A stretch of DNA of 16,721 bases. It comes from a virus. Its lineage: Duplodnaviria; Heunggongvirae; Uroviricota; Caudoviricetes. The notes under the pieces are model-generated. The model made no database searches. It saw nothing but the letters and a program-made list of their open reading frames with translations, and had not been told where the DNA came from. Positions within the stretch are counted from its first letter, which is position 1. Each line of letters starts with the position of its first letter. The stretch is taken from positions 1 to 16,721 of the IMG/VR virus record IMGVR_UViG_2617270976_000017; one strand, written 5' to 3'. Below are positions 1 to 16,721 of this stretch, piece by piece. The translations under genes were made by a program, and so were the position numbers.

Positions 1-378
1 CCTGCTGACCATTGTCTGCATGATGTTCAGGATATGAGTACGATTAATCATCCCCGGGCTGACCTGAGCAAAGGGCAGTACGGCTGTGTCGGACAGGGCT
101 TACATATTGCCAAAAAACTGCTTCCGTATATCCCTAATAACGCGGGGATCCTGCTGGTACCATGCTGTCGTGGTGGTTCGGCATTCACCCAGGGCACGGA
201 GGGGACATTCAGCGAGTCCACGGGGGCCAGTCAGGATTCGGCTCGCTGGGGAGTGGGTAAGCCGTTATATCAGGATCTGCTTTTCCGCACGAAGGCAGCA
301 TTGCAGAAAAACCCGAAAAACGTTTTGCTGGCGATATGCTGGATGCAGGGGGAATTCGATATGACGAATGCCAGTTAG
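1..378 (+). CDS. 3' portion of a hypothetical prophage protein; reading frame is open from base 1, so probably 5'-truncated by the window edge
   Basis: Frame 1 has no stop from position 1 to TAG at 376-378; the ORF track starts it at ATG 34 only because that is the first Met. GC-rich like the phage backbone. No family recognised with confidence (a weak impression of an SGNH/esterase-like 'W-x-QGE-x-D' block, not verifiable here). Confidence 0.4.
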   Translation, partial: PADHCLHDVQDMSTINHPRADLSKGQYGCVGQGLHIAKKLLPYIPNNAGILLVPCCRGGSAFTQGTEGTFSESTGASQDSARWGVGKPLYQDLLFRTKAALQKNPKNVLLAICWMQGEFDMTNAS

Positions 379-587
379 TGCTGGTGAGCCTTGACGGGCT
401 GATCTCCTATGCAGCAAAGGTTCATCTCAAAGTAAGACGAACGCTATGACAAACCAAGATTCTATAGACCTATCTGATCTTCGTGGAATGGTCAGTTTTC
501 CAGACAAAAGGTAATCACCATAGTCGTATGGCTATGAATCTTGTTGCTGCAGATAAGCATTTTGTGATTGAAGTGGTCAAATCTCTC

Positions 588-644
588 AAATGCAGTAAAA
601 TGCAGTGCGCTATAATTCAATAACGGAGGGAGTAAGGAGAAGTC
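588..644 (+). promoter_or_regulatory. putative promoter/RBS region for the 645..1265 gene: tandem AAATGCAGT x2 (588-606), TATAAT (611-616), strong Shine-Dalgarno GGAGGG/AAGGAGA (625-640)
   Basis: Perfect -10 hexamer 29 nt upstream of ATG 645; double SD motif 5-15 nt upstream of the ATG; no convincing -35, so promoter call is weak. Confidence 0.3.
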
Positions 645-1265
645 ATGAAAGATCAAGATGTTAGGTTCGCGGTGCATCATAAGCTTTTGAAAGAATCGCA
701 TTTAGATCCAGACTGCCTTGTGGTCGATGAATTTTCCATATCCCTTGGCGCCAGTAGAGCAGACATTGCTGTAATAAATGGTGTTATACACGGGTACGAG
801 CTCAAAAGTGAATATGACTCTTTGGAGCGTTTGCCTCTTCAAATCAAGCATTATTCTTCTGTAATGGACAAGGTTACTCTTGTCGTAGCTGAGAAACACC
901 TTGAGGGAGCATTAAAGTTAATCCCAGGTTGGTGGGGCGTTAAAACGGTTTCTGTTGGGCCAAAAGGCGCCATTCTTATAAAGCACATGCGTGGAGAAAA
1001 GCTTAATCGAAACCATGACACATTGATGCTCGCTCAATTGCTTTGGAAAGATGAATGTATCGACGTACTTGAACGATGGGGCTATTCCAAAGGAATCAAA
1101 AGCAAGCCCCGATTTGAGTTATGGAATATTATTGCGGAAAATATTCCAATAGCGAATCTCAGGCTTGAAGTCAGAACAGCCTTAAAGAAACGCGTAGGCT
1201 GGAAAGTTAAGGCTTGGCAGGCTGAGTCTGCGCCAACCAATAAAGCTGTCTCACGACTAACGTAA
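645..1265 (+). CDS. hypothetical 206-aa protein with a PD-(D/E)xK-like nuclease signature (..RADIAVINGVIHGYELKSE..); accessory (moron) gene
   Basis: Long ORF with strong RBS; AT-richer than the flanking phage structural genes; Asp followed ~12 residues later by E-L-K in hydrophobic beta-strand-like context, as in restriction-endonuclease-fold proteins. Family assignment not possible without HMM search. Confidence 0.65.
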   Translation: MKDQDVRFAVHHKLLKESHLDPDCLVVDEFSISLGASRADIAVINGVIHGYELKSEYDSLERLPLQIKHYSSVMDKVTLVVAEKHLEGALKLIPGWWGVKTVSVGPKGAILIKHMRGEKLNRNHDTLMLAQLLWKDECIDVLERWGYSKGIKSKPRFELWNIIAENIPIANLRLEVRTALKKRVGWKVKAWQAESAPTNKAVSRLT

Positions 1266-2274
1266 TATGGTGCGTATGTGCAACTTTACGCCATTCTTTA
1301 GAGCCGCCAGATTTGTTAGCGCCTAATGATCTTTGGTAAATGTAATCATCCCCCCAACTAAATTTGGAGCCAAAGACTTGATACTCTGGCGAACTAACAA
1401 GGGTAGTACATAAGTTTTTAGTTTGGCCCCATCCATTTCCTTTAACTGCGGTACCTTTTACAAAGATCCATGAGGTATCGTTCGAATATCTCACTGAGAC
1501 ATACTGAGACATGAAGCGTGGGTCTACGCTCGTAATGGTAGAGCTAGCGGTGGGATAATCACTAAAACTTGGCGTTCTTCCATTGCTAAAATTCTGTACT
1601 ACGTACATCCAAAGATCGTATTCATGGCGCGGAATATGATGAACTTGATGTTGCGGTATCCCTGCCTGTGATGCCGGGTATGCGGTTGAAGATAAAATCA
1701 AGTTTCTCCACGGAGCTTGGCCTGATAATGTGTTGACCATGCTTAATGCTTGTTGTTTTAAACTATCAGTTGCGTTTTGAATATCTCCAAAATCAATGAT
1801 TACATCAATTAAACTAGGATGAATATTTAAGTGGTTAACCAGACTTGTGAATTGGTGCCATGTCTGGGGGGTGATAGATATAGCGAGCCCATTGATTAAG
1901 TTGCGTTGAACAGCATGTATATAGTTTGTTGAATATGCGGGAGAAACAACAGGGATAATTTCCTTACCATTTACTCTAGCATCTTGGATACACATATCTA
2001 GAGGATGATGGCGGCTCGAACCATGTTTATCTAAATATTTAACATCCAGCAAAACAGGACGATTGGCTTTCCAGGATGCCGCAAGGTTAATACCGAAGTC
2101 AGATAAGTAAGAACTCAAACTCTTCTTGTAGCATTCGTTTTCATAATCCCAGTCTATGTCTGGAATGGTAATGATCGGAGTAAAACCAGAGAGCGTAGTT
2201 TGATCTAAAAGCATCAGAGATTCATATTCAGCAGGCTTCCATTTCAGCTGTGGATAATATTGATGTTGACTCAT
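1207..2274 (-). CDS. hypothetical 355-aa protein, convergent to and overlapping the 3' end of 645..1265; accessory gene
   Basis: Long minus-strand ORF; ATG at 2274-2272 preceded by a perfect AAGGAG (complement of 2280-2285) with 5-nt spacing; same AT-rich composition as its neighbour. No recognisable lambda homolog. Confidence 0.65.
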   Translation of the reverse strand: MSQHQYYPQLKWKPAEYESLMLLDQTTLSGFTPIITIPDIDWDYENECYKKSLSSYLSDFGINLAASWKANRPVLLDVKYLDKHGSSRHHPLDMCIQDARVNGKEIIPVVSPAYSTNYIHAVQRNLINGLAISITPQTWHQFTSLVNHLNIHPSLIDVIIDFGDIQNATDSLKQQALSMVNTLSGQAPWRNLILSSTAYPASQAGIPQHQVHHIPRHEYDLWMYVVQNFSNGRTPSFSDYPTASSTITSVDPRFMSQYVSVRYSNDTSWIFVKGTAVKGNGWGQTKNLCTTLVSSPEYQVFGSKFSWGDDYIYQRSLGANKSGGSKEWRKVAHTHHITLVVRQLYWLAQTQPAKP

Positions 2275-2470
2275 TAAAACTCCTTAAAATCTTTACTTAT
2301 CCTAAGTATAGTGTTATGGCGTAACGCCAATTGTTTTTATACACTTGAAAACATTGGGAAAAGTTGAGCTATATCTAAATTTACAAAATTGGATGTTATA
2401 GAAATCGAGGTTTCAACTAGGCATGGAACTGCAAAATTTTTAATGCCTGCACGCGAAAGTCGTTGGCGGG

Positions 2471-2497
2471 TCCTTTCCGGTGATCCAGATCGTTACG
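2471..2497 (+). other. cosQ-like segment immediately upstream of cosN
   Basis: TCCTTTCCGGTGATCC...GTTACG matches my recollection of the last ~27 bases of the phage lambda genome (right end). Confidence 0.55.
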
Positions 2498-2509
2498 GGG
2501 CGGCGACCT
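2498..2509 (+). other. cosN: 12-nt cohesive-end sequence GGGCGGCGACCT
   Basis: Exact match to the lambda 12-nt cohesive end, followed by CTCGCGG(T)TTTTC-CTATTTATGAAAATTTT as at the lambda left end. Confidence 0.8.
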
Positions 2510-2684
2510 CGCGGTTTTTCACTATTTATGAAAATTTTTCAGGGAAAATCGTGTCGGTACTTCTCGAATATAACTTTTTGTTTTTTTTAATATTGCATTC
2601 ATAAATGTCCGACATGAAAGTGTCCGAAAATGCCTTTTTTTGGCGTTTTCATGTCGGGCCTTGTATTTGATAATGAGTTGTTCT
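2510..2684 (+). promoter_or_regulatory. cosB-like terminase binding region with three oppositely oriented core elements (TGTCGG at 2552-2557, CCGACA at 2609-2614, TGTCGG at 2652-2657) and an AT-rich segment between the first two
   Basis: Position between cosN and the Nu1 start, +/-/+ orientation and spacing (about +54, +111, +154 from cosN) mirror the lambda R3-I1-R2-R1 layout, but the element sequence differs from lambda's. Confidence 0.55.
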
Positions 2685-3233
2685 ATGAAGGTTAATAAAA
2701 AGAGGCTTGCCGAAATTTTTAACGTGGACCCGCGGACGATTGAACGCTGGCAGTCTCAGGGGCTCCCTTGCGTCTCCAAAGGCAGTAAGGGCATTGAATC
2801 TGTATTTGATACTGCCATGGCAATTCAGTGGTATGCGCAGAGGGAAACTGATATCGAAAACGAAAAGCTCCGCAAAGAACTGGCCGATTTGCGTGCGGCA
2901 GCGGAGTCAGATTTACAACCCGGCACCATTGACTATGAACGCTACCGGCTCACAAAAGCGCAGGCAGATGCGCAGGAACTGAAAAATGCCCGTGAAGACG
3001 GAGTGGTGCTGGAAACTGAACTATTTACCTTCATTCTGCAACGTGTGGCACAGGAGATTTCGGGGATACTTGTGCGTGTGCCGTTGACATTACAGCGTAA
3101 ATATCCGGACATTTCACCATCACACCTTGATGTGGTGAAAACTGAAATCGCGAAAGCCTCCAATGTTGCAGCTAAGGCCGGTGAAAACGTGGGCGGGTGG
3201 ATCGATGATTTCAGACGCACAGAAGGCAGCTAA
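2685..3233 (+). CDS. nu1: terminase small subunit (lambda Nu1 homolog)
   Basis: [12 protein letters not shown]...[12 protein letters not shown]...[49 protein letters not shown] aligns along its length with lambda gpNu1 as recalled. Start taken at ATG 2685 (the ORF track's 2640 uses an upstream TTG). Confidence 0.9.
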
Positions 3234-5133
3234 TGCAGCCGGTGCGATAGCTACAGGGCTTTTATCTCTCATTATTCCTGTTCCACTGACGACAGTTCAG
3301 TGGGCCAATAAACATTATTACCTTCCTAAAGAGTCGTCTTATACCCCGGGGCGGTGGGAAACACTGCCGTTTCAGGTTGGCATCATGAACTGTATGGGCA
3401 ACGATTTGATTCGCACTGTTAACCTGATTAAATCTGCCCGTGTTGGTTATACAAAGATGTTGCTGGGAGTGGAGGCTTATTTTATTGAGCATAAATCACG
3501 CAACAGCCTTCTTTTTCAGCCCACGGACTCAGCTGCTGAAGATTTTATGAAATCTCATGTTGAGCCAACGATAAGGGATGTTCCTGCATTGCTGGAGCTG
3601 GCTCCATGGTTCGGAAGAAAACACCGCGATAATACGCTCACCCTGAAGCGTTTTTCCTCCGGTGTGGGTTTCTGGTGTCTGGGGGGAGCGGCAGCAAAAA
3701 ACTACCGTGAAAAATCCGTGGATGTGGTTTGTTATGACGAGCTTTCCTCGTTCGAACCGGATGTTGAAAAAGAGGGTTCGCCAACCCTGCTGGGGGATAA
3801 ACGTATTGAGGGCTCTGTATGGCCAAAATCCATTCGCGGCTCGACGCCTAAAATCAAAGGCTCCTGCCAGATCGAAAAAGCCGCTAACGAGTCGGCACAT
3901 TTCATGCGTTTTTATGTGCCCTGTCCGCACTGTGGGGAGGAGCAGTATCTGAAATTTGGCGATGATGCCTCGCCTTTCGGTCTTAAGTGGGAGAAGAATA
4001 AGCCAGAAAGTGTTTTCTACCTTTGTGAGCATCATGGCTGTGTGATCCATCAGTCTGAGCTTGACCAGAGTAACGGGCGGTGGATCTGTGAAAACACGGG
4101 CATGTGGACTCGTGACGGTCTGACATTTTTCAGCGCCGCGGATAATGAAATTCCGCCGCCGCGCTCCATCACATTCCATATCTGGACGGCGTACAGTCCG
4201 TTCACCACCTGGGTACAGATTGTCTATGACTGGCTGGATGCACTGAAAGATCCCAACGGCCTGAAAACCTTTGTGAACACCACGCTGGGCGAGACCTGGG
4301 AAGAGGCCGTGGGCGAAAAACTCGATCACCAGGTGCTGATGGATAAGGTTGTGCGTTACACGGCTGCGGTGCCTTCCCGGGTGGTTTATCTGACGGCGGG
4401 CATTGACTCGCAGCGAAACCGTTTTGAGATGTATGTCTGGGGATGGGCTCCGGGAGAGGAAGCCTTTCTGGTGGATAAAATCATCATTATGGGGCGTCCC
4501 GATGAGGAAGAGACGCTGTTACGTGTGGATGTGGCGATCAACAAAAAATACCGCCATGCAGACGGAACCGAAATGACCATTTCCCGTGTCTGCTGGGACA
4601 CCGGGGGGATCGATGGCGAAATTGTCTATCAGAGGTCAAAAAAACACGGTGTTTTCCGGGTGCTGCCGGTAAAAGGTGCATCTGTTTATGGCAAGCCGGT
4701 GATCACCATGCCAAAAACCCGCAATCAGCGGGGCGTGTATCTGTGCGAAGTGGGGACGGACACCGCAAAAGAAATTCTCTATGCCCGTATGAAAGCCGAT
4801 CCCACGCCTGCGGATGAAGCCACGTCGTATGCCATCCGTTTTCCTGATGATCCGGAGATTTTTTCGCAGACAGAGGCGCAGCAACTGGTGGCGGAAGAGC
4901 TTGTGGAGAAGTGGGAAAAAGGAAAGATGCGTCTGCTGTGGGATAACAAAAAGCGGCGTAACGAAGCGCTGGACTGCCTGGTGTATGCCTACGCGGCATT
5001 ACGTGTGTCCGTGCAACGCTGGCAGCTTGATCTGGCTGTACTGGCAAAATCCCGGGAAGAAGAGACGACCCGGCCAACCCTTAAAGAACTGGCAGCGAAG
5101 CTGTCCGGAGGAGTGAATGGTTACAGTCGCTGA
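3205..5133 (+). CDS. A: terminase large subunit (lambda gpA homolog)
   Basis: Strong colinear similarity to lambda gpA ([24 protein letters not shown]..., [33 protein letters not shown]..., [10 protein letters not shown]...). Start placed at ATG 3205 (MISDAQ...), overlapping the Nu1 3' end as in lambda. Confidence 0.95.
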
Positions 5134-5323
5134 ACTGCAGGCGCTGCGTCAGGCGCGCCTTGATTTATTAACCGGTAAACGGGTGGTGTCTGTCCAGAAA
5201 GATGGTCGCAGAATTGAATATACGGCAGCTTCTCTGGATGAGCTTAACCGGGCGATCAATGATGCGGAGTCGGTACTGGGGACAACCCGCCGTCGCCGTC
5301 GTCCGCTGGGAGTGAGGTTATGA
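5117..5323 (+). CDS. W: head-tail joining / head completion protein (lambda gpW homolog, 68 aa)
   Basis: 68-aa ORF with LLTGKRVVSVQKDGRRIEYTA core matching lambda gpW; overlaps A stop and B start (ATGA) as in lambda. Confidence 0.9.
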   Translation: MVTVAELQALRQARLDLLTGKRVVSVQKDGRRIEYTAASLDELNRAINDAESVLGTTRRRRRPLGVRL

Positions 5324-7029
5324 AACGAACGCCTGTCCTGATTGATGTGAACGGCGTTCCGCTTCGGGAGAGCCTCAGCTACAACGGTGGCGGTGCAGGA
5401 TTTGGCGGGCAAATGGCAGAGTGGTTGCCACCCTCGCAGAGTGCCGATGCGGCCCTGCTGCCCGCGTTGCGTCTGGGGAATGCCCGTGCAGATGATCTGG
5501 TGCGCAATAACGGAATAGCGGCCAATGCGGTGGCCCTGCATAAGGATCACATTGTCGGGCATATGTTTCTGATTAGCTACCGTCCGAACTGGCGCTGGCT
5601 GGGGATGCGGGAGACCGCGGCAAAAAGTTTTGTCGATGAGGTGGAGGCGGCCTGGTCAGAATACGCAGAAGGGATGTTTGGTGAGATCGACGTGGAAGGG
5701 AAACGCACGTTTACGGAATTTATCCGTGAAGGTGTGTGCGTTCATGCGTTTAACGGCGAAATCTTTGTGCAGCCGGTCTGGGATACGGAGAGTACGCAAC
5801 TGTTTCGTACGCGTTTTAAAGCCGTGAGTCCGAAACGGGTGGACACGCCAGGACACGGTATCGGGAACCGTTTTCTGCGGGCCGGTGTGGAGGTTGATCG
5901 ATATGGCCGTGCCGTTGCGTACCATATCTGTGAGGATGATTTTCCTCGCTCCGGGAGTGGACGATGGGAACGGATCCCGCGTGAACTACCCACCGGGCGT
6001 CCGGCCATGCTGCATATTTTCGAGCCGGTGGAGGACGGGCAGACCCGTGGAGCCAATCAGTTTTACAGCGTTATGGAACGGCTGAAGATGCTCGATTCCC
6101 TGCAGGCAACACAGCTTCAGTCGGCCATAGTGAAGGCGATGTATGCAGCGACGATTGAAAGTGACCTTGATACCGAAAAGGCCTTTGAATATATCGCCGG
6201 TGCGCCGCAGGGGCAGAAGGATAATCCGCTTATTAATATTCTGGATAAGTTCTCCACCTGGTATGACACGAATAGCGTGACGCTGGGCGGTGTCAAAATT
6301 CCGCACCTTTTCCCCGGTGATGATCTGAAACTTCAGACCGCGCAGGATTCAGACAATGGATTTTCGGCGCTTGAACAGGCGCTGCTGCGGTATATCGCCG
6401 CCGGTCTTGGCGTTTCCTACGAACAGTTGTCCCGTGATTACTCGAAGGTCAGTTACTCAAGTGCCCGCGCATCCGCCAATGAGTCGTGGCGCTATTTTAT
6501 GGGGCGGCGAAAATTTATTGCGTCCCGGCTGGCCACGCAGATGTTTTCCTGCTGGCTGGAAGAGGCACTTCTTCGGGGGATTATTCGTCCGCCACGGGCA
6601 CGGTTTGATTTTTATCAGGCGCGATCAGCCTGGTCACGGGCTGAGTGGATTGGAGCCGGAAGAATGGCCATTGACGGGCTCAAGGAGGTTCAGGAATCAG
6701 TGATGCGCATTGAGGCCGGACTGAGCACGTATGAGAAAGAGCTGGCGCTGATGGGCGAGGATTATCAGGACATTTTCCGCCAGCAGGTCAGGGAATCTGC
6801 AGAGCGGGAAAAAGCCGGACTCTCACGTCCGGTGTGGATAGCGCAGGCGTATCAGCAGCAGATAGCGGAGAGTCGCAGGCCGGAAGAGGAGACAGTCGCG
6901 GATGAATATGACCAGCCGACGTCCGATATCACGAAGGATAAATGCAGCAAATGCCTGAGCGGCTGTAAGTTTCGCAATAACGTCGGCAACTTTGGCGGCT
7001 TCCTTTCCATTAACAAACTTTCGCAGTAA
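5320..7029 (+). CDS. B: portal protein (lambda gpB homolog) whose last codons are replaced by an in-frame fusion to the 3' end of tail gene L
   Basis: Residues 1-~525 colinear with lambda gpB (GGGAGFGGQ..., FEPVEDGQTRGANQFYSVME..., LRYIAAGLGVSYEQLSR...); the final 44 residues VADEYDQPTSDITKDKCSKCLSGCKFRNNVGNFGGFLSINKLSQ match the C-terminus of lambda gpL. Confidence 0.85.
   Translation: MKRTPVLIDVNGVPLRESLSYNGGGAGFGGQMAEWLPPSQSADAALLPALRLGNARADDLVRNNGIAANAVALHKDHIVGHMFLISYRPNWRWLGMRETAAKSFVDEVEAAWSEYAEGMFGEIDVEGKRTFTEFIREGVCVHAFNGEIFVQPVWDTESTQLFRTRFKAVSPKRVDTPGHGIGNRFLRAGVEVDRYGRAVAYHICEDDFPRSGSGRWERIPRELPTGRPAMLHIFEPVEDGQTRGANQFYSVMERLKMLDSLQATQLQSAIVKAMYAATIESDLDTEKAFEYIAGAPQGQKDNPLINILDKFSTWYDTNSVTLGGVKIPHLFPGDDLKLQTAQDSDNGFSALEQALLRYIAAGLGVSYEQLSRDYSKVSYSSARASANESWRYFMGRRKFIASRLATQMFSCWLEEALLRGIIRPPRARFDFYQARSAWSRAEWIGAGRMAIDGLKEVQESVMRIEAGLSTYEKELALMGEDYQDIFRQQVRESAEREKAGLSRPVWIAQAYQQQIAESRRPEEETVADEYDQPTSDITKDKCSKCLSGCKFRNNVGNFGGFLSINKLSQ
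6895..7029 (+). pseudogene. L: 3' remnant of tail tip gene L (last ~44 codons) fused to B
   Basis: C-terminal gpL sequence including the Cys-rich CSKCLSGC block; immediately followed by K as in lambda gene order L-K-I-J. Confidence 0.7.
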
Positions 7030-7033
7030 TCCC

Positions 7034-7777
7034 ATGACAGAGACAGAATCAGCGATTCTGGCGCACGCCCGGCGATGTGCGCCAGCGGAGTCGTGCGGCT
7101 TCGTGGTGAGAGCGCCGGAGGGGGAAAGATATTTCCCCGGCGTGAATATCTCCGGTGAGCCGGAGGATTATTTCCGTATGTCGCCGGAAGACTGGCTGCA
7201 GGCAGAAATGCAGGGTGAGATTGTGGCGCTGGTCCACAGCCACCACGGTGGTCTGCCCTGGCTGAGTGAGGCCGACCGGCGGCTGCAGGTGCAGAGTGAT
7301 TTGCCGTGGTGGCTGGTCTGCCGGGGGACGATTCACAAGTTCCGCTGTGTGCCGCATCTCACCGGGCGGCGCTTTGAGCACGGGGTGACGGACTGTTACA
7401 CGCTGTTCCGGGATGCTTATCATCTGGCGGGGATTGAGATGCCGGATTTTCATCGCGGGGATGACTGGTGGCGTCACGGTCAGAATCTCTATCTGGATAA
7501 TCTGGAAGCCACAGGGCTGTATCAGGTGCCGTTGTCATCAGCACAACCGGGCGATGTGCTGCTGTGCTGCTTTGGTTCATCGGTGCCGAATCATGCCGCC
7601 ATTTACTGTGGTGACGGCGAGCTGCTGCACCATATTCCTGAACAACTGAGCAAACGAGAGAGGTATACCGACAAATGGCAGCGACGCACACACTCCCTCT
7701 GGCGTCACCAGGCATGGCACGCATCTGCCTTTACGGGGATTTACAACGATTTGGCCGCCGCATCGATCTGCGTGTGA
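7034..7777 (+). CDS. K: tail assembly protein K (lambda gpK homolog)
   Basis: MTETESAILAHARRCAPAESCGFVV...HSHH... ORF; overlaps I by ~100 nt as K and I do in lambda. An internal Met at 7178 corresponds to the shorter classical K annotation. Confidence 0.85.
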   Translation: MTETESAILAHARRCAPAESCGFVVRAPEGERYFPGVNISGEPEDYFRMSPEDWLQAEMQGEIVALVHSHHGGLPWLSEADRRLQVQSDLPWWLVCRGTIHKFRCVPHLTGRRFEHGVTDCYTLFRDAYHLAGIEMPDFHRGDDWWRHGQNLYLDNLEATGLYQVPLSSAQPGDVLLCCFGSSVPNHAAIYCGDGELLHHIPEQLSKRERYTDKWQRRTHSLWRHQAWHASAFTGIYNDLAAASICV

Positions 7778-8316
7778 AAACGGGGGCCGAAGCCATCCGG
7801 GCGCTGGCCATGCAGATCCCGGCGTTTCGTCAGAAGCTGAGCGACGGCTGGTATCAGGTACGCATTGCCGGGCGTGATACAGGTGAAACGGAATTATCAG
7901 CCCGTCTTAATGAACCGCTGGCAAATGGTGCTGTGATCCATATCGTGCCGCGTCTGGCAGGAGCCAAAAGTGGCGGTGTGTTTCAGGCTGTGCTGGGGGC
8001 GGCTGTTATGGCGGTTGCTATATGGATGCCGGGGGTAGGAATTATGGCGAGTAATCTGCTGTTTTCTCTCGGTGCCAGTATGACGCTTGGCGGTGTTGCA
8101 CAGATGCTGGCCCCTAAACCCAAAACCCCCCGCACACAGACAACGGATAACGGCAAACAGAACACCTATTTCTCTTCACTGGATAACATGGTTGCCCAGG
8201 GCAATGTTCTGCCTGTTCTGTACGGTGAAATGCGCGTGGGGTCACGTGTGGCATCTCAGGAGATCAGCACGGCAGATGAAGGGGATGGTGGTCAGGTTGT
8301 GGTAATTGGGCGGTAA
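7675..8316 (+). CDS. I: tail assembly protein I (lambda gpI homolog)
   Basis: MAATHTLPLASPGMARICLYGDLQRFGRRIDLRVKTGAEAIRALA... and C-terminal ...NVLPVLYGEMRVGSRV.SQEISTADEGDGGQVVVIGR match lambda gpI. Confidence 0.9.
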   Translation: MAATHTLPLASPGMARICLYGDLQRFGRRIDLRVKTGAEAIRALAMQIPAFRQKLSDGWYQVRIAGRDTGETELSARLNEPLANGAVIHIVPRLAGAKSGGVFQAVLGAAVMAVAIWMPGVGIMASNLLFSLGASMTLGGVAQMLAPKPKTPRTQTTDNGKQNTYFSSLDNMVAQGNVLPVLYGEMRVGSRVASQEISTADEGDGGQVVVIGR

Positions 8317-8388
8317 TATTATTTACTCATGTTCTAACTGATTTAATATTTATATCGAACACTGATAATTATTCTATTGGTTAGCTAT

Positions 8389-8727
8389 ATGAACAAAACG
8401 ATTTTATTCTGCACGATTATTGCCTTAACAGGATGTAAATCTTTGGATTACGTAAAATCCGGAAAACCTGTAATGGAAGGTAATTCATTAAAAAATATTG
8501 ATGAATTGTCAGGCTGCATATCCAGACAATGGGCTGGTAATGGAACACCTATAACATCCCTTCCTATTGAGAATGGGGTAAGCCTTTTAGTTCCACAGGC
8601 TATGGGGGGATATGATGTTGTGCTTGATATCAAAAAAGCAGGAAATGGCAGTAGTTTTACTCTTTATGAACGTGTACCAGCATTAACGCCAAAAATTTTT
8701 GCTGATAGTGTTAATGCATGTAAATAA
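8389..8727 (+). CDS. small predicted lipoprotein (signal peptide MNKTILFCTIIALTG-C, lipobox LTGC); accessory gene inserted between I and J
   Basis: ORF with N-terminal hydrophobic segment ending in L-T-G-C; markedly AT-rich relative to flanking I and J; followed by a hairpin terminator. Start placed at ATG 8389; weak RBS. Confidence 0.6.
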   Translation: MNKTILFCTIIALTGCKSLDYVKSGKPVMEGNSLKNIDELSGCISRQWAGNGTPITSLPIENGVSLLVPQAMGGYDVVLDIKKAGNGSSFTLYERVPALTPKIFADSVNACK

Positions 8728-8750
8728 TAGTTAATCCTGCTGTAACTCAT

Positions 8751-8780
8751 GAGCCGCCTTTTGGGCGGCTTTGTTGTTTA
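8751..8780 (+). terminator. rho-independent terminator-like hairpin (GAGCCGCC-TTTT-GGGCGGCT) plus T-rich tail
   Basis: 8-bp GC-rich stem (one mismatch) with 4-nt loop followed by TTGTTGTTT, directly after the lipoprotein stop. Confidence 0.55.
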
Positions 8781-8793
8781 TGGAGTGTGAGGA

Positions 8794-10186
8794 ATGGGTA
8801 AAGGAAGCAGTAAGGGGCATACCCCGCGCGAAGCGAAGGACAACCTGAAATCCACGCAATTACTGAGTGTGATCGATGCCATCAGCGAAGGGCCGATTGA
8901 AGGTCCGGTGGATGGATTAAAAAGCGTGCTGCTGAACAGTACACCGGTGCTGGACAGTGAGGGGAATACCAACATCTCCGGTGTCACGGTGGTGTTCCGG
9001 GCAGGTGAGCAGGAGCAGACACCGCCGGAGGGATTTGAATCCTCCGGTTCCGAGACGGTGCTGGGTACGGAAGTGAAATACGACACGCCGATCACCCGGA
9101 CCATCACGTCTGCAAACATCGACCGTCTGCGCTTTACCTTCGGTGTGCAGGCTCTGGTGGAAACCACCTCAAAGGGGGACCGGAATCCGTCGGAAGTCCG
9201 CCTGCTGGTTCAGATACAACGTAACGGTGGCTGGGTGACGGAAAAAGACATCACCATTAAGGGCAAAACCACCTCGCAGTATCTGGCCTCGGTGGTGGTG
9301 GGTAACCTGCCGCCGCGCCCGTTTAATATCCGGATGCGCAGAATGACGCCGGACAGCACCACAGACCAGCTGCAGAACAAAACGCTCTGGTCGTCATACA
9401 CCGAAATCATCGATGTGAAACAGTGCTATCGGTGCCGGTATTGAGAATACGCCAGCAGGAATGCAGAGTCAGGTGCTGCTGGCGGCAGACAGGATTGCGA
9501 TGATTAATCCTGCGAATGGCAACACAAAGCCGATGTTTGTTGGTCAGGGCGATCAGATATTTATGAATGAAGTGTTCCTGAAATATCTGACGGCTCCCAC
9601 CATTACCAGCGGCGGTAATCCTCCGGCATTTTCCCTGACACCGGACGGGCGGCTGACGGCGAAAAATGCCGATATCAGCGGTAACGTGAATGCGAACTCC
9701 GGGACGCTCAACAACGTCACGATTAACGAGAACTGTCGGGTTCTGGGAAAATTGTCCGCGAACCAGATTGAAGGCGATCTCGTTAAAACAGTGGGCAAAG
9801 CTTTCCCCCGGGACTCCCGTGCACCGGAGCGGTGGCCATCAGGAACCATTACCGTCAGGGTTTATGACGATCAGCCGTTTGACCGGCAGATTGTTATTCC
9901 GGCGGTGGCATTCAGCGGCGCTAAACATGAGAAAGAGCATACTGATATTTACTCCTCATGCCGTCTGATAGTGCGGAAAAACGGTGCTGAAATTTATAAC
10001 CGTACCGCGCTGGATAATACGCTGATTTACAGTGGTGTTATTGATATGCCTGCCGGTCACGGTCACATGACACTGGAGTTTTCGGTGTCAGCATGGCTGG
10101 TAAATAACTGGTATCCCACAGCAAGTATCAGCGATTTGCTGGTTGTGGTGATGAAGAAAGCCACTGCAGGCATCACGATTAGCTGA
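8794..10186 (+). pseudogene. J: tail tip/host specificity gene J, disrupted: N-terminal ~210 codons (8794..9444) joined out of frame to the C-terminal ~240 codons (9461..10186); central ~2 kb missing
   Basis: 8794..9444 matches lambda gpJ residues 1-~212 nearly residue for residue and then stops (..VKQCYRCRY*); 9461..10186 in another frame matches the gpJ C-terminal region (..[32 protein letters not shown]..) with a divergent extreme C-terminus. Confidence 0.8.
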
Positions 10187-10204
10187 ATTTTATAACCCAG
10201 ATAC

Positions 10205-10230
10205 GGGCGCCAGAAATGGCGCCTTTTTTA
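10205..10230 (+). terminator. rho-independent terminator-like hairpin (GGGCGCC-AGAAAT-GGCGCC) followed by TTTTTTA
   Basis: 6/7-bp GC stem, 6-nt loop, T6 tract, just after the J stop. Confidence 0.55.
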
Positions 10231-10253
10231 TTGCAGAAAAGCGAGAGGTAATT

Positions 10254-10853
10254 ATGCGTAAATTATGTGCTGTTATTTTGTCCGCAGTAGTCTGGCAGGT
10301 CGCCGCTGCTACGCCAGCGAGTGCAGCAGAACATCAGTCCACGCTGAGCGCGGGGTATCTCCATGCCTCGACGAACGTTCCCGGTAGTGATGATCTGAAC
10401 GGGATTAACGTGAAATACCGTTATGAGTTTACGGACGCGCTGGGGCTGATTACGTCCTTCAGTTATGCCAATGCTGAGGATGAGCAAAAAACGCGCTACA
10501 GCGATACCCGCTGGCATGAAGATTCCGTGCGTAACCGCTGGTTCAGCGTGATGGCGGGGCCGTCTGTACGCGTGAATGAATGGTTCAGCGCGTATGCGAT
10601 GGTGGGTGTGGCTTACAGCCGTGTGTCGACTTTCTCCGGGGATTATCTCCGCGTAACTGACAACAAGGGGAAAACGCACGATGTGCTGACCGGAAGTGAT
10701 GACGGTCGCCACAGCAACACGTCTCTGGCGTGGGGGGCTGGCGTGCAGTTTAATCCGACCGAATCCGTGACCATTGACCTTGCTTATGAAGGTTCCGGTA
10801 GTGGCGACTGGCGAACGGATGCATTTATTGTTGGTATCGGATACCGTTTCTGA
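10254..10853 (+). CDS. lom: outer membrane beta-barrel protein Lom (Ail/Lom/PagC family)
   Basis: Signal-peptide-like N-terminus, alternating beta-strand pattern, C-terminal ...GIGYRF; position between J and stf as in lambda. Confidence 0.85.
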   Translation: MRKLCAVILSAVVWQVAAATPASAAEHQSTLSAGYLHASTNVPGSDDLNGINVKYRYEFTDALGLITSFSYANAEDEQKTRYSDTRWHEDSVRNRWFSVMAGPSVRVNEWFSAYAMVGVAYSRVSTFSGDYLRVTDNKGKTHDVLTGSDDGRHSNTSLAWGAGVQFNPTESVTIDLAYEGSGSGDWRTDAFIVGIGYRF

Positions 10854-10958
10854 CAACAGACGCCGATTTATCTTCTGTAAATATTGTTATGATACGCAGG
10901 TTCATCCACCTTATGGGGTGAACTGCGTTTGAGGAAACGTAAAGTTACACTGTCCTGA

Positions 10959-10990
10959 AGCCCGTGGCGTCACTGCTGCGGGCTTTTTTT
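10959..10990 (+). terminator. terminator-like stem (AGCCCG...CGGGCT) followed by T7 tract
   Basis: 6-bp stem with a long (14-nt) loop and TTTTTTT immediately downstream; loop is long, so call is weak. Confidence 0.4.
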
Positions 10991-11004
10991 ATTGGTGGAA
11001 AAGT

Positions 11005-13911
11005 ATGACAGTAAAAATTTCTGGCGTGCTTAAAGATGGCACAGGAAAACCAGTACAGAACTGCACCATTGTGCTGAAGGCCAGACGAACCAGCAGCACG
11101 GTGGTGGTGAACACGGTGGCCTCTGAAAATCCGGATGAAGCCGGACGTTACAGCATGGATGTTGAGCATGGTCAGTACAGCGTCACCCTGCTGGTTGAAG
11201 GTTTTCCGCCTTCACATGCCGGGACCATTACCGTCTATGAAGGTTCCAGACCAGGTACGCTGAATGATTTTCTCGGTGCCATGACGGAGGATGATGTCCG
11301 ACCGGAGGCACTGCGCCGCTTTGAGCAGATGGTAGAAGAGGTGTCACGTAACGCCTCCGCGGTTGCACAGAATACGGCAGCCGCGAAAAAATCAGTCAGC
11401 GATGCCAGTGCATCAGCCAGCGAGGCGGCAACTCATGCAACCGATGCTGCAGCCTCAGCACGTGCCGCCAGCACGTCAGCCGGACAGGCCGCGTCGTCGG
11501 CTCAGTCAGCGTCTTCCAGCGCAGGAACGGCATCGACAAAGGCCCGTGAAGCAGCAAAAAGTGCTGCTGCTGCAGAGTCATCAAAAAGCGCGGCAGCTAC
11601 CAGCGCCAGTGCCGCGAAAACGTCAGAAACGAATGCCGCAGCATCACAAAAATCGGCAGCCACTTCTGCATCCACAGCGACCACGAAGGCGTCAGAAGCT
11701 GCCACCTCGGCACGGGGTGCGGCGGCCTCAAAAGAGGCAGCGAAATCTTCAGAAACGAATGCATCATCAAGTGCCAGTAGTGCAGCTTCCTCGGCAACGG
11801 CGGCAGGAAATTCCGCGAAGGCGGCAAAAACGTCCGAGACGAACGCTAAGTCTTCTGAAACAGCAGCGGGACAGAGCGCCTCAGCTGCGGCAGGTTCAAA
11901 AACAGCGGCTGCATTATCTGCCAGTGCCGCGTCAACAAGTGCCGGGCAGGCCTCAGCCAGTGCCACCGCCGCCGGAAAATCGGCAGAAAGCGCCGCATCA
12001 TCCGCTTCAACAGCCACAACGAAGGCTGGCAAAGCCACTGAGCAAGCCACTGCAGCAGCGAGGTCTGCTTCTGCAGCAAAAACCTCTGAAACAAATGCAA
12101 AGACTTCAGCAGACAATGCTGCTTCCTCTAAGGCGGCAGCCGCATCGTCAGCCAGTTCAGCGGCGTCATCGGCATCATCTGCGTCTGCTTCAAAAGATGA
12201 GGCGACCAGACAAGCGTCAGCAGCGAAAGGTAGTGCCACGACAGCAACAACGAAAGCATCAGAGGCAGCTGGTAGTGCGACGGCGGCAGCTCAGAGCAAA
12301 AGTACGGCGGAATCCGCGGCAACGCGCGCCGAGACAGCAGCAAAACGGGCAGAGGATATTGCATCCGCCGTGGCGCTGGAGGATGCGAGCACGACGAAAA
12401 AGGGGATAGTACAGCTCAGCAGTGCGACCAACAGCACTTCCGAGTCACTGGCGGCAACGCCAAAAGCGGTTAAGGCGGTAATGGGTGAAACGAACAAGAA
12501 AGCGCCCTTAAATAGTCCTGCACTGACCGGAACGCCAACAACACCAACTGCGCGACAGGGAACGAATAATACCCAAATCGCAAGCACGGCTTATGTTATG
12601 GCTGCGATCGCTGCCCTCGTGGACTCGTCGCCTGACGCACTGAATACGCTGAACGAGCTGGCTGCGGCGTTGGGCAACGACCCGAATTTTGCGACCACCA
12701 TGACTAGCGCGCTTGCGGGTAAGCAACCGAAAGATGCCACCCTGACGGCGCTGGCCGGGCTTGCTACTGCGGCAGACAGGTTTCCGTATTTTACGGGGAA
12801 TGATGTTGCCAGTCTGGCAATCCTGACAAAAGTTGGGCGGGATATTCTTGCGAAATCGACCGTTGCCGCCGTTATCGAATACCTCGGTTTACAGGAAACG
12901 GTAAACAAGGCTGGTAACGCCGTTCAGCGTTCCGGCGATAAAATGACCGGAGAACTGAAAATTGGCACGGTGAATGCGCTGCGAATTTTCAATGATGCCT
13001 TCGGTCTTATTTTCCGTCGTTCAGAAGATTTTCTTCATTTCATTCCGACGGCTGAAGGACAAGGCGAAAACGGTGATATCGGCCCATTAAGGCCATTCGC
13101 TATAAATCTGAGAACAGGTGCTATATCTGTCAGCCACGGGGCCAAAATTGATGGTGGGCTGGCGCTTGGTACAGATAACGCACTGGGCGGTAATTCCATT
13201 ACTCTCGGAGATAACGACACTGGTATTAAACAGGGCGGCGACGGTGTCCTTTTATTCTATTCAAATGGACAACTGGCATTTGGGCTTCAACCCGCATCTG
13301 CTGATTTTTATAAGCGGGTTGCATATATTCATCAGGGAATAATTCCTGATGGAAGTGGCGCATTTGCAGACCAGTTGAATAATGCCACCGCGCCTTTTGT
13401 TCAGACGCAGTTTGCCTGGAATCCCACTCCTGGTGGTCATTACGTGCCGATAGTTAAGGGCTTGTCCATTCGCAATGGACAGGGCTATCCCGGCGCGGTC
13501 AGCTTTGGGTATTTACTGACAGAACAGTATGGATTTCCGGTTCCATGTATTCATATGCGTGGCGATGGAGGTAATGATGCTTTATGGTATTTTAACCCGA
13601 ACGATAAATCCTTTATTTCACCGGGTGCTCTTATTGCGGGTGGCGTCCGTTATAACACCGATGGAAATATATTTGGTGGGTGCTGGGGTTCAAACTTAAA
13701 TGATTACCTGAATAGTTCTTTTATCAGAAATGTGCGTCTGGGAGGCAGACGTTCTGACACATTATATCGCGGAGGACTTTGCGAACCAGGTAATGGTCAT
13801 GTGACAACAGGATTGCAAATTATTGGTGAGGTTGATGGAGATGACTGGATGGTGTCACGACCACTACAAAAATACATTTCTGGTAACTGGTATAACGTTG
13901 AACAGGCATAG
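11005..13911 (+). CDS. stf: side tail fibre protein (Stf family), 968 aa, with Ala/Ser-rich repetitive shaft
   Basis: N-terminus MTVKISGVLKDGTGKP.QNCTIVLKARRTSSTVV and ...YSVTLLVEGFPPSHAGTITVYE match the conserved Stf N-domain; long A/S-rich repeat region; C-terminal tip ...PLQKYISGNWYNVEQA. Confidence 0.9.
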   Translation: MTVKISGVLKDGTGKPVQNCTIVLKARRTSSTVVVNTVASENPDEAGRYSMDVEHGQYSVTLLVEGFPPSHAGTITVYEGSRPGTLNDFLGAMTEDDVRPEALRRFEQMVEEVSRNASAVAQNTAAAKKSVSDASASASEAATHATDAAASARAASTSAGQAASSAQSASSSAGTASTKAREAAKSAAAAESSKSAAATSASAAKTSETNAAASQKSAATSASTATTKASEAATSARGAAASKEAAKSSETNASSSASSAASSATAAGNSAKAAKTSETNAKSSETAAGQSASAAAGSKTAAALSASAASTSAGQASASATAAGKSAESAASSASTATTKAGKATEQATAAARSASAAKTSETNAKTSADNAASSKAAAASSASSAASSASSASASKDEATRQASAAKGSATTATTKASEAAGSATAAAQSKSTAESAATRAETAAKRAEDIASAVALEDASTTKKGIVQLSSATNSTSESLAATPKAVKAVMGETNKKAPLNSPALTGTPTTPTARQGTNNTQIASTAYVMAAIAALVDSSPDALNTLNELAAALGNDPNFATTMTSALAGKQPKDATLTALAGLATAADRFPYFTGNDVASLAILTKVGRDILAKSTVAAVIEYLGLQETVNKAGNAVQRSGDKMTGELKIGTVNALRIFNDAFGLIFRRSEDFLHFIPTAEGQGENGDIGPLRPFAINLRTGAISVSHGAKIDGGLALGTDNALGGNSITLGDNDTGIKQGGDGVLLFYSNGQLAFGLQPASADFYKRVAYIHQGIIPDGSGAFADQLNNATAPFVQTQFAWNPTPGGHYVPIVKGLSIRNGQGYPGAVSFGYLLTEQYGFPVPCIHMRGDGGNDALWYFNPNDKSFISPGALIAGGVRYNTDGNIFGGCWGSNLNDYLNSSFIRNVRLGGRRSDTLYRGGLCEPGNGHVTTGLQIIGEVDGDDWMVSRPLQKYISGNWYNVEQA
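11350..12370 (+). repeat. intragenic tandem-repeat region of stf encoding the Ala/Ser-rich shaft (recurring ..AAKTSETNA.. units)
   Basis: Repeated nucleotide blocks such as gcgaaaacgtcagaaacgaatgc / gcaaaaacgtccgagacgaacgc / gcaaaaacctctgaaacaaatgc recur at ~11615, ~11745, ~11825, ~12075. Confidence 0.6.
12872..12897 (+). other. 26-bp recombination (crossover) site of a Gin/Pin/Cin/Hin-type inversion system, inside stf
   Basis: TTATCGAATACCTCGGTTTACAGGAA closely resembles the gix/pix-type crossover sites as I recall them and is an inverted copy (22/26) of the site at 15951..15976. Confidence 0.65.
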
Positions 13912-13926
13912 CCATCAGGAGAATAT

Positions 13927-14454
13927 ATGCAACATCTGAAAAATATTACCGCCGGAAACCCCAAAACCATTGAGCAGTATCAGCTTACGAAAAAAGCTGG
14001 CGTTATCTGGCTATATACAGAAGACGGTAAAAACTGGTATGACGAATTAAAAAACTTTCAGGATGATACTTTAAAAATAGCTTATGACCAGAAGGGGATT
14101 ATTCGTTGTATTGAGAAAGACGTATCAATGCTTAACCCTGACGGGTTAAGTGTTGTTGAGTTACCGAATATAACAGCCAACCGTCGCGCCGATATCTCGG
14201 GAAACTGGAAGTTTCTGGATGGTAAAGTAGTAAAGCGGGAATATACAAAACAGGAACTGCAACAGCAGGCAGAGTTACAAAAAGCCGCTTTGCTTTCCGA
14301 AGCGGAGTCTGTGATTCAACCGCTGGAACGTGCTGTCAGACTGAATATGGCAACTGATGAGGAACGCACACGACTGGAATCATGGGAACGCTACAGCGTT
14401 ATGGTCAGCCGTGTGGATACTGCAAAGCCTGAATGGCCACAGAAACCAGAATAA
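13927..14454 (+). CDS. tfa: tail fibre assembly protein (Tfa family)
   Basis: 175-aa ORF directly after stf with good RBS (CAGGAGA); N-terminal half matches the conserved Tfa pattern and is paralogous to the inverted ORF at 14485..15018. Confidence 0.85.
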
Positions 14455-14465
14455 CAACAAATTAA

Positions 14466-14485
14466 GGCCCGTACGGGCCTTTTCT
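14466..14485. terminator. bidirectional terminator hairpin (GGCCCG-TA-CGGGCC) between the convergent tfa genes
   Basis: Perfect 6-bp GC stem with T-rich flanks on both strands, located between the stop codons of the two convergent tfa genes. Confidence 0.5.
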
Positions 14486-15018
14486 TATTCTGGTGGTTCC
14501 GGGAATGTTACAGGAAGAACCGAGGTATCAGTTGTCTCAACCTGTTGCACGTATCGCATCCAGTTCATCAGTTGCTGTCTGTCTGAATCAGTGATAATCC
14601 CCAAAGTAAGCTGTGTTTGCCAGAACTGCGTTTTTTCTCTGGCCTGCTGTAATAATATTTTTTTCTGGTTTTCCGTCTGTAGGCGCAACTCTTCTTCGGT
14701 ATATACACGTTTAATGACTGCGCCATCTTTAAACATCCATTTACCTGAGTCGTCAGCACGCCGGTTGGCGGTAATATCAGGAATCTCAACGACGCTATAA
14801 CCTTCAGGGTTAAGTGTGGAGGCATCTTTGGTTATGGCAACAATAATATTATTTTCATCGTAAACAATCTTTATGGTGTCTGGCTGAAAGTTTTTCACTT
14901 CCTCATACCAGTTTTTTCCGTCCTCAGAGTAAAGCCAGATAACTCCGTGTTTCTTTGTTAACTCATACTGTTCCAGTGTTTTAGCATTACCCGCTTTTAT
15001 GTTCTTTAAGTGCATCAT
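14485..15018 (-). CDS. tfa: tail fibre assembly protein, second copy in inverted orientation (Tfa')
   Basis: [45 protein letters not shown]... is clearly paralogous to the + strand Tfa ([45 protein letters not shown]...). Confidence 0.85.
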
Positions 15019-15019
15019 A

Positions 15020-15523
15020 TTAAACGCTCGCTACATTATACCAGGTGCCATTTATATACTTTTGAACGGGTCTGTAATAAACGCCCGCTATATTATCGGC
15101 AGAGTTAGACCCTGTATCCTGAACATTAATACCAGACAATACATGACCTGAAGGGCACTGGAAATTCCATGTTTGCCAGTTGTTCACTCCATAATATTGC
15201 TGTGAACCAAGTCGAACATCTTTCACATAACGGGAATCAAAGTTACCGTAATCCGAGGGGTTAACACGCCCTGTAATATTTATGGTTTTATTACTTTGAA
15301 TGCTTCCGGAGACAAAGCGCATAACATGGACGTTATTAGCATAAACATCCAGATTACCATCGCCATTTTGTTTAAAGCCCGTGTCATTATCACCCAATAC
15401 AATCGAATTACCGCCAAGAGCACTGGATGTTCCGATACCCAGTGCACCATTCAGTTGACCACCAGATAACGGCAGTGATAGAAACAGAAGCCACTGGAGC
15501 ACCTCAAAAACACCATCATACAC
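15020..15523 (-). CDS. stf: alternative side tail fibre C-terminal (receptor-binding) segment, inverted orientation (StfE-like fragment)
   Basis: Contains ..[22 protein letters not shown].. and C-terminal ..[16 protein letters not shown], paralogous to the stf tip (..ALGGNSITLGDNDTGIKQGGDG.. / ..PLQKYISGNWYNVEQA); stop abuts tfa' start. Confidence 0.75.
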
Positions 15524-15587
15524 TAAATCAGTAAGTTGGCAGCATCACCCACGGGCTGAACGATAAAAAATACCGCCATTTTTATAA

Positions 15588-15962
15588 TTAATCCAAAAAC
15601 TGAGCTGCAGGACAACTTCCTTCTCCCATATAAAAATGAATAATTAACGTTGATGCACCACTAATAGTTGCGTTATAGGCTCCGCTACTCCAGTTCCATC
15701 CAACTGCTTTATCATTCGCAACGGTGCTTCCTGTTTTCCCTAAGGCAAACGCACCAACATGACTTGCTTTTAATGTGATATCGGAGGAACCATCAAAAGC
15801 CACATTGCTTATTTTCCTGGCAGTTTTTAATTTTGCAGCTGTAGAAGCATTGCCGGATAGTTCACCAGAAAGGCCACCGCTGAATGTTTGTCGATTAGTC
15901 CAGGTATTCGCTGTACTGAGTAACGGTATTTTCTCCCCGCTTGTGCCGAGTTCTCGTAAACC
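15588..15962 (-). pseudogene. proximal part of the alternative stf variable segment, in frame with the crossover site but separated from the distal part (15020..15523) by stops in all frames
   Basis: Reading the minus strand from the crossover site at 15962 gives an open frame (GLRELGTSGEKIPLL...GSCPAAQFLD) ending at TAA 15588-15590; the downstream tip ORF is in a different frame. Confidence 0.45.
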
Positions 15963-15976
15963 GAGGTTTTAGATAA
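15951..15976 (+). other. second 26-bp crossover site, inverted relative to 12872..12897
   Basis: TTCTCGTAAACCGAGGTTTTAGATAA; its reverse complement TTATCTAAAACCTCGGTTTACGAGAA matches the stf-internal site at 22/26 positions with an identical central ACCTCGGTTTAC core. Confidence 0.65.
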
Positions 15977-16030
15977 TGGCGGTTTCTGGCCTGCATGGCA
16001 TGATTTGTGCTTTTGGACGGGAGATTCAGC

Positions 16031-16436
16031 GTGCTGATTGGCTATGTAAGGGTATCAACAAATGACCAGAATACAGATCTGCAACGAAACGCTCTTGTTT
16101 GTGCAGGATATGAACAAATATTTGAAGATAAATTAAGCGGAACAAGGACAGGCCGACCTGGATTAAAACGTGCTTTAAAGCGCCTTCAAAAAGGTGACGC
16201 ACTGGTTGTCTGAAAACTGGACTGACTGGTTCACTGTATGCGGCATCTTGTCGTGCTGGTGGTGGAAGCCTAGAAAAAGTATCGGGTGTTGCTGAACCGT
16301 GTTGATACATCAACTGCACCTGATATTGAGTGGCCTACGAACCCTGTCAGGGAGTAATCATTGGGATTATGCCGCAGCACGTCTTAAGCAAGAACGTGCT
16401 GCGGTTGGATGGTGAACTTTCGATAGTGCGAGTATT
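16031..16436 (+). pseudogene. pin: Pin/Gin/Cin/Hin-family serine DNA invertase, inactivated (first ~60 codons intact, then multiple in-frame stops)
   Basis: VLIGYVRVSTNDQNTDLQRNALVCAGYEQIFEDKLSGTRTGRPGLKRALKRLQKGDALVV matches the invertase N-terminus including the catalytic Ser context; TGA at 16211-16213 falls where a Trp is expected, followed by further stops while residual similarity (..MRHLVVLVVE.., ..RVDTST..) persists. 3' end approximate. Confidence 0.65.
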
Positions 16437-16472: not shown

Positions 16473-16721
16473 TTAGTGAACAAACCACTCGTCAGCAGAC
16501 TCCCAGGTATCTTTCAGAGTTTCCTGAACAAAAGTTTTAGCTGAATCTTTATCGGCGGTGCGCGTAACAGAAAGGCCATCGTTGCTGGTGGCTTTTACGA
16601 TCACCTCTACATCGTCATAACGTTTACTGATGCGTCGGGTTAATTCTTCCTTTAACGCATCCACAGCACCGTTTGGCATTTTAGTGATTTTTTCTTTAGC
16701 GATACAGATCTCAACACGCAT
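16473..16721 (-). CDS. DinI-family protein (82 aa)
   Basis: [12 protein letters not shown]...[17 protein letters not shown]...LSV....[26 protein letters not shown] matches the DinI pattern as recalled (MRIEVTIAK..., ...ETWESADDWFV); start codon is the last three bases of the window. Confidence 0.8.

Follow-up and report, generated by a model that had tools for sequence, protein, structure and literature searches.

Published genetics have established that the bacteriophages lambda and 21 share the cosQ and cosN subsites of their packaging sites and differ in cosB and in the recognition helix of the small terminase (TerS), a difference that leads to a more than 1000-fold packaging discrimination between the two phages. 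The two specificities are incompatible (PMC4669245), and the standard architecture of cosB is described as R3-I1-R2-R1 with R2 in inverted orientation (PMC9026076). Within R3, base pairs 56 and 59 are critical for specificity, and the G-C pair that the phage 21 R3 box (R3-21) has at the former position is described as clashing with Glu24 of lambda TerS; the I2 segment is credited with a function in termination (PMC4669245). A lambda-like cohesive end and cosQ, combined with specificity that is conferred via cosB, have also been described for N15/Monarch cos and for the cos sites of phage-inducible chromosomal islands (PICIs) (PMC4669245, PMC9026076). However, N15 and PICIs have just one R3-like site and lack I1, R2 and R1, and their R sequences are unrelated to those of the locus described here.

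The DNA analysed in this study, hereafter referred to as the window, is the whole stretch of 16,721 nucleotides of the IMG/VR virus record IMGVR_UViG_2617270976_000017. The original prediction, made from the letters of the window, had proposed a lambda-type cos site with lambda-like cosN and cosQ but with different terminase-binding elements. Among phage records, the best match to the cos region was obtained for phage 21 (M81255, X02501 and OL657228) with 95-97% identity, and the cos subsites were placed by transferring the annotation of the phage 21 records through alignments (Table 1). The segment 2498-6894 is collinear with bases 1-4398 of phage 21 at 97.5% identity, while the sequence to the left of approximately position 2460 is unrelated to the right arm of phage 21. 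From these comparisons, we conclude with high confidence that the segment 2467-2683 represents a cos site with the packaging specificity of phage 21, located in a defective lambdoid prophage of E. coli.

Table 1. Predicted cos subsites, adjoining genes and deletions in the window (deletions relative to the chromosomal prophage of E. coli DA33133).
Feature	Position	Strand	Basis or content
cosQ, GGGTCCT, packaging-termination subsite	2468-2474	+	identical to OL657228 42902-42908 and lambda
cosN, 12-nt cohesive-end sequence GGGCGGCGACCT between two staggered nicks (predicted)	2498-2509	+	phage 21 and lambda alignment
I2, between cosN and cosB, annotated IHF site in M81255 196-210	2527-2541	+	identical to phage 21
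cosB R3, AATCGTGTCGGTACTT, predicted small-terminase binding site	2547-2562	+	identical to OL657228 50-65 'cosB R3'
cosB I1, TAACTTTTTGTTT, predicted IHF bending site between R3 and R2	2571-2583	+	identical to OL657228 74-86
cosB R2, inverted, minus strand reads TTTCATGTCGGACATT	2604-2619	-	OL657228 107-122 'cosB R2, opposite orientation'
cosB R1, TTTCATGTCGGGCCTTG	2647-2663	+	identical to OL657228 150-166 'cosB R1'
Gene 1, small terminase (TerS, Nu1 family), 182 aa	2685-3233	+	Pfam Phage_Nu1, E = 2.6e-81
Gene 2, large terminase (TerL, gpA family), 642 aa, intact	3205-5133	+	Pfam GpA_ATPase, GpA_nuclease
Portal gene fused in frame to 3' end of tail gene L	5320-7029	+	Pfam Phage_portal_2 and C-terminal Phage_tail_L, one ORF
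Deletion 1, about 3.0 kb	about 372-377		lost: SASA esterase 3' part, holin, ydfR, lysozyme, Rz-like lysis gene
Deletion 2, 9.8 kb	6893/6894		lost: protease/scaffold, decoration, major capsid, FI, FII, Z, U, V, G, T, H, M, most of L
Deletion 3, 2.1 kb	9427/9428		lost: middle of J

Starting with the cutting site itself, the cohesive end had been assigned correctly, as GGGCGGCGACCT has a single exact match in the entire 16.7 kb, at precisely the proposed position. In phage 21, it corresponds to bases 1-12 of the virion genome; it also aligns to the cos site annotated in lambda(DE3), and its flanks (2493-2514) show no difference from either phage. The proposed likeness of cosN and cosQ to lambda likewise held in the alignment, in which both subsites are identical; moreover, the distance from cosQ to the nick amounts to 30 nt in the window, in phage 21 and in lambda alike. 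The 'R4' box of M81255 maps to 2467-2478 and encloses cosQ. To the left of cosN, eight substitutions relative to phage 21 were counted within 38 bp, none of them in cosQ. In the spacer that separates cosQ from cosN, six bases deviate from phage 21 (2480-2481 and 2488-2491); of these, 2480-2481 carry the lambda bases, while 2488-2491 read GATC in the window versus ACAG in both lambda and phage 21. The same spacer allele is present in the DA33133 prophage. As other lambdoid phages, e.g. PhiR5_1, also vary in this spacer, it seems to be tolerant of change.

To the right, from cosN to the start of gene 1 (2498 to 2685; 187 bp), six substitutions (2599, 2601, 2606, 2640, 2676 and 2683) and one single-base deletion set the window apart from phage 21. 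Only 2606 lies in an R box, namely R2, whereas 2676, 2683 and the single-base deletion fall near the ribosome-binding site of gene 1. The subsites cosQ, cosN, I2, R3, I1 and R1 are identical to those of phage 21 (X02501, M81255 and OL657228), with the same spacing and orientation, and the I2 segment is conserved in comparison with lambda as well.

Within cosB, the three TGTCGG/CCGACA cores were found as predicted, in +,-,+ orientation at 2552-2557, 2609-2614 and 2652-2657, i.e. at +54, +111 and +154 from position 2498, with an AT-rich stretch (2565-2600) between the first two. In the alignments, these cores coincide exactly with the annotated R3, R2 and R1 boxes of phage 21 and with the positions of the same boxes in lambda, and all four elements including I1 line up column for column with the sites of both phages. 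The proposed mirroring of the lambda R3-I1-R2-R1 layout was thus confirmed, and the alignment to lambda and phage 21 showed that the three elements do correspond to R sites. While the layout, cosQ, the cohesive end with its immediate flanks and the nick distances are shared with lambda, the R-box core in the same columns reads TGTCGG in the window and CGTTTCC in lambda. The difference extends to the specificity-critical positions of R3, since base pair 56 (position 2553) is G in the window and T in lambda, and base pair 59 (position 2556) is G and C, respectively; both bases of the window are of the phage 21 type.

The statistical weight of the motif is of less importance here. The bare TGTCGG hexamer is not enriched across the window (7 found versus 7.7 expected). 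The extended core TCRTGTCGG occurs three times, with all copies located in one 106-bp stretch, against 0.24 expected in 16.7 kb, and none of 200 shuffles reached three copies; however, this pattern was taken post hoc from the three copies themselves and the shuffle count is to be read as descriptive only. The decisive evidence for the predicted cos elements is instead their homology. The only box that departs from phage 21 is R2, which matches at 15 of 16 positions and carries T2606 where phage 21 has G, corresponding to a C to A change on the box strand at position 14 of the 16-bp box. This variant is also present in the DA33133 prophage; it was found in none of the isolated phages of the phage collection and was detected in prophages only, including ones with a complete annotated head and tail gene set.

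The terminase genes adjoining cos gave a matching picture, with 98-99% protein identity to those of phage 21. TerS is identical to phage 21 gp1 at 179 of 182 residues, and residues 1-29, which include the helix-turn-helix (HTH) recognition helix, are those of gp1 throughout; the sole N-terminal change, A30V, falls after the recognition helix. TerL matches gp2 at 634 of 642 residues and is uninterrupted, with no gaps in the alignment. The lambda terminases (Nu1 and gpA families) are homologous to both proteins, but the N-terminal 102 residues of TerS are only 63% identical to Nu1, and position 24 is Ser in the window and Glu in lambda.

Taken together, the locus combines the hallmarks of a lambda-like cos (a cohesive end, cosQ, a complex cosB with three R boxes and an IHF site, and adjoining Nu1/gpA terminase genes) with those of phage 21 specificity (21-type R boxes, G-C at base pairs 56 and 59, and a gp1-type TerS helix with Ser24). 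The assumption of a small-terminase specificity that differs from lambda in the manner of phage 21 was therefore substantiated, as cosB and TerS are those of phage 21. The comparison of lambda and 21 goes beyond an analogy in this case because the window carries phage 21's own cosB; judged by sequence, the supposedly different elements are the known cosB of phage 21 and hence a feature that had already been described. The cos segment was detected at a coverage of at least 80% in 602 of 5,426 complete E. coli genomes, and 29 records of this search reached an identity of at least 99%.

Based on the genetics of lambda and phage 21 (PMC4669245, PMC9026076), a packaging mechanism can be proposed for this site. 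Dimers of gp1 would bind R3 and R2, as well as R1, and bending of I1 by IHF would bring R3 and R2 together. Bound gp1 would then anchor the large terminase gp2 on cosN, where gp2 is expected to introduce two nicks 12 bp apart and thereby to generate the 5' cohesive end GGGCGGCGACCT. Packaging would run rightward from cosB, and the terminating cut at the next cos would be directed by cosQ, cosN and I2. The content of the window fits this general R3/R2-IHF-TerS model with 21 specificity. Given R boxes and a TerS recognition helix of the 21 type, the site should be used by a 21-specific terminase and ignored by a lambda-specific one. Such use would be possible in trans only, with proheads and tails supplied by a co-resident or superinfecting phage of 21 specificity, since the lysis cassette, the head and tail-shaft genes and the middle of J have been lost from the prophage.

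The genomic context of these losses was derived from the closest relative of the window, a chromosomal prophage of E. coli DA33133 that is apparently intact and contains a full annotated set of head and tail genes. The segment 372-6894 is 99.89% identical to this prophage (7 mismatches in 6,523 bp). In DA33133, genes for immunity and replication are followed by the antiterminator, lysis genes, accessory genes, cos, terminase, head and tail genes, J and lom. Relative to this arrangement, the window has undergone three deletions (Table 1). At the first, the two alignment blocks overlap by 6 bases, and a truncated gene of a SASA-family carbohydrate esterase (34-378) abuts the region upstream of the accessory genes. 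At the second, which created the portal-L fusion, the sequence jumps from position 4398 to 14181 of phage 21, or from 24455 to 34247 of the DA33133 locus. The third deletion, of about 2.1 kb relative to both DA33133 and phage 21, leaves J in two pieces, of which the N-terminal one (8794-9444) contains FNIII-A and the C-terminal one (9461-10186) is the receptor-binding part.

Judged by this gene content, the prophage is defective. The portal-L junction was found in none of the 5,426 complete E. coli genomes and gave no exact match in species-representative genomes; it is contained in two records, namely the source assembly (GCA_000704325.1) and one sequencing run. An exact protein look-up led to this assembly, in which the window takes up positions 3-16723 of contig JNQT01000033.1. 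As the module is 99.9% identical to its DA33133 relative, the deletions look recent.

The original prediction had also concluded from the internal position of cos that the element is an integrated prophage in prophage map order. An internal cos alone is no proof of integration, as circular or permuted assemblies show it too. The conclusion nevertheless stands, supported instead by the chromosomal homologue in DA33133 and by the loss of essential genes, and the gene order from lysis and accessory genes through cos and terminase to head and tail agrees with the proposed map.

Considering the extent of the deletions, we asked whether the site might be a relic that is intact in sequence but functionally dead, i.e. 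unusable even in the presence of a helper phage, owing either to the R2 and spacer substitutions or to lost expression of the terminase. Besides the heavily deleted state of the prophage, such a reading could draw on the absence of the R2 variant from the isolated phages of the collection, and on the substitutions at 2640 and 2676, which are private to the window in comparison with the closest prophage. However, the cos allele including the R2 variant is found at 99.2% identity in prophages that retain a full annotated head and tail gene set, and the deletions look recent, with a module nearly unchanged from its relative and a junction missing from all complete genomes searched. In lambda cosB, moreover, a single change in R2 or R1 has a milder effect than one in R3. 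We thus regard a dead cos as unlikely, and the preferred reading remains that of a 21-type site that could be used with help.

The opposite view, that the module of cos, TerS, TerL and W has been kept because it is used and not by accident, appears to us very unlikely. If it were so, the module may serve as a helper-dependent origin from which 21-type phages package adjacent chromosomal DNA, or it may provide terminase that would either hinder or complement phages entering the cell, and the R2 and spacer variants might tune such use. Recent decay is the simpler reading compared with retention by selection, and it is favoured because the module is nearly identical to that of an intact prophage while the junction is essentially private to the strain.

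It is likewise extremely unlikely that the site defines a new packaging specificity, a third one besides those of lambda and phage 21. In favour of such a specificity, the R boxes are clearly unlike those of lambda, and one substitution in R2 separates the window from phage 21; yet I1, R1 and R3 with its critical base pairs 56 and 59 show the phage 21 sequence throughout, TerS agrees with gp1 up to residue 29, with A30V lying outside the recognition helix, and there is no hint of a new protein-DNA code. This possibility was rejected on account of the identity of R3, R1 and the helix. Finally, the idea that the locus is the cos of a PICI hijacking a helper terminase via Rpp was prompted by the lambda-like cosQ and cosN beside a different cosB that are also seen in PICI cos sites (PMC9026076) and by the lack of capsid genes in the element. 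It was dismissed as next to inconceivable, since repeated R sequences are absent from PICI cos sites, which have rpp and not terminase genes downstream (PMC9026076), whereas in the window three R boxes and I1 precede full-length genes for TerS, TerL, W and the portal that are collinear with phage 21, and simple deletions from an intact prophage account for the genes that the element lacks. Accordingly, a cos of phage 21 specificity in a recently decayed prophage remains the reading that we adopt.

A cos site that is likewise retained in a deleted lambdoid prophage is known from the cryptic prophage Qin of E. coli K-12, where it lies upstream of nohA. This site was also considered as a candidate of the 21 type and was rejected, as the alignment shows lambda-type R boxes in its cosB, in contrast to the 21-type boxes of the window. 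The DA33133 prophage shares the Qin-type genes dicB, ydfA, ydfB, ydfC, rem, hokD and rrrQ, yet possesses a 21-type cosB and TerS. Since Qin has lambda-type R boxes and the DA33133 prophage with which it shares these genes has 21-type ones, the packaging-specificity module appears to have been exchanged among otherwise related prophages.

Several further genes of the window deserve mention. Just upstream of cos, a convergent, overlapping gene pair (645-1265 on the plus strand and 1207-2274 on the minus strand) is also present in the intact DA33133 prophage. One gene of the pair is named as sce7726-family for the DA33133 homologue in RefSeq, or is Phage_P4_cII-like according to Pfam, and corresponds to the PADLOC model 'cll'; the other is assigned to the Pfam family 'Beta protein' and matches the PADLOC models 'beta' and PD-Lambda-2_C. 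The pair lies in the accessory-gene slot that separates cos from the lysis genes, and it looks like a cargo for anti-phage defence. Further to the right, two tail-fibre assembly genes are arranged face to face (13927-14454 on the plus strand and 14485-15018 on the minus strand) and are accompanied by an ORF for a tail-fibre C-terminus in opposite orientation (15020-15523). The region 13927-16320 resembles an invertible host-range segment of the Pin/Gin type. Whereas related E. coli genomes carry an annotated 'recombinase family protein' beside the tail-fibre segment, only short ORFs are left in the window at about 15590-16320; the invertase may have decayed. An Ail/Lom-family outer-membrane protein gene (10254-10853) located after J and a DinI-like gene on the minus strand at the right edge of the window (16473-16721) are typical lambdoid prophage cargo.

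The cosB/TerS pair of lambda versus 21 is a classic, genetically dissected system, and the window carries its 21 allele. In practical terms, the cos site indicates where packaging starts in this prophage family and where its virion map has its left end. The strain also has a cos that is in principle open to recognition by a 21-specific helper phage, even though the prophage is unable to form particles of its own.
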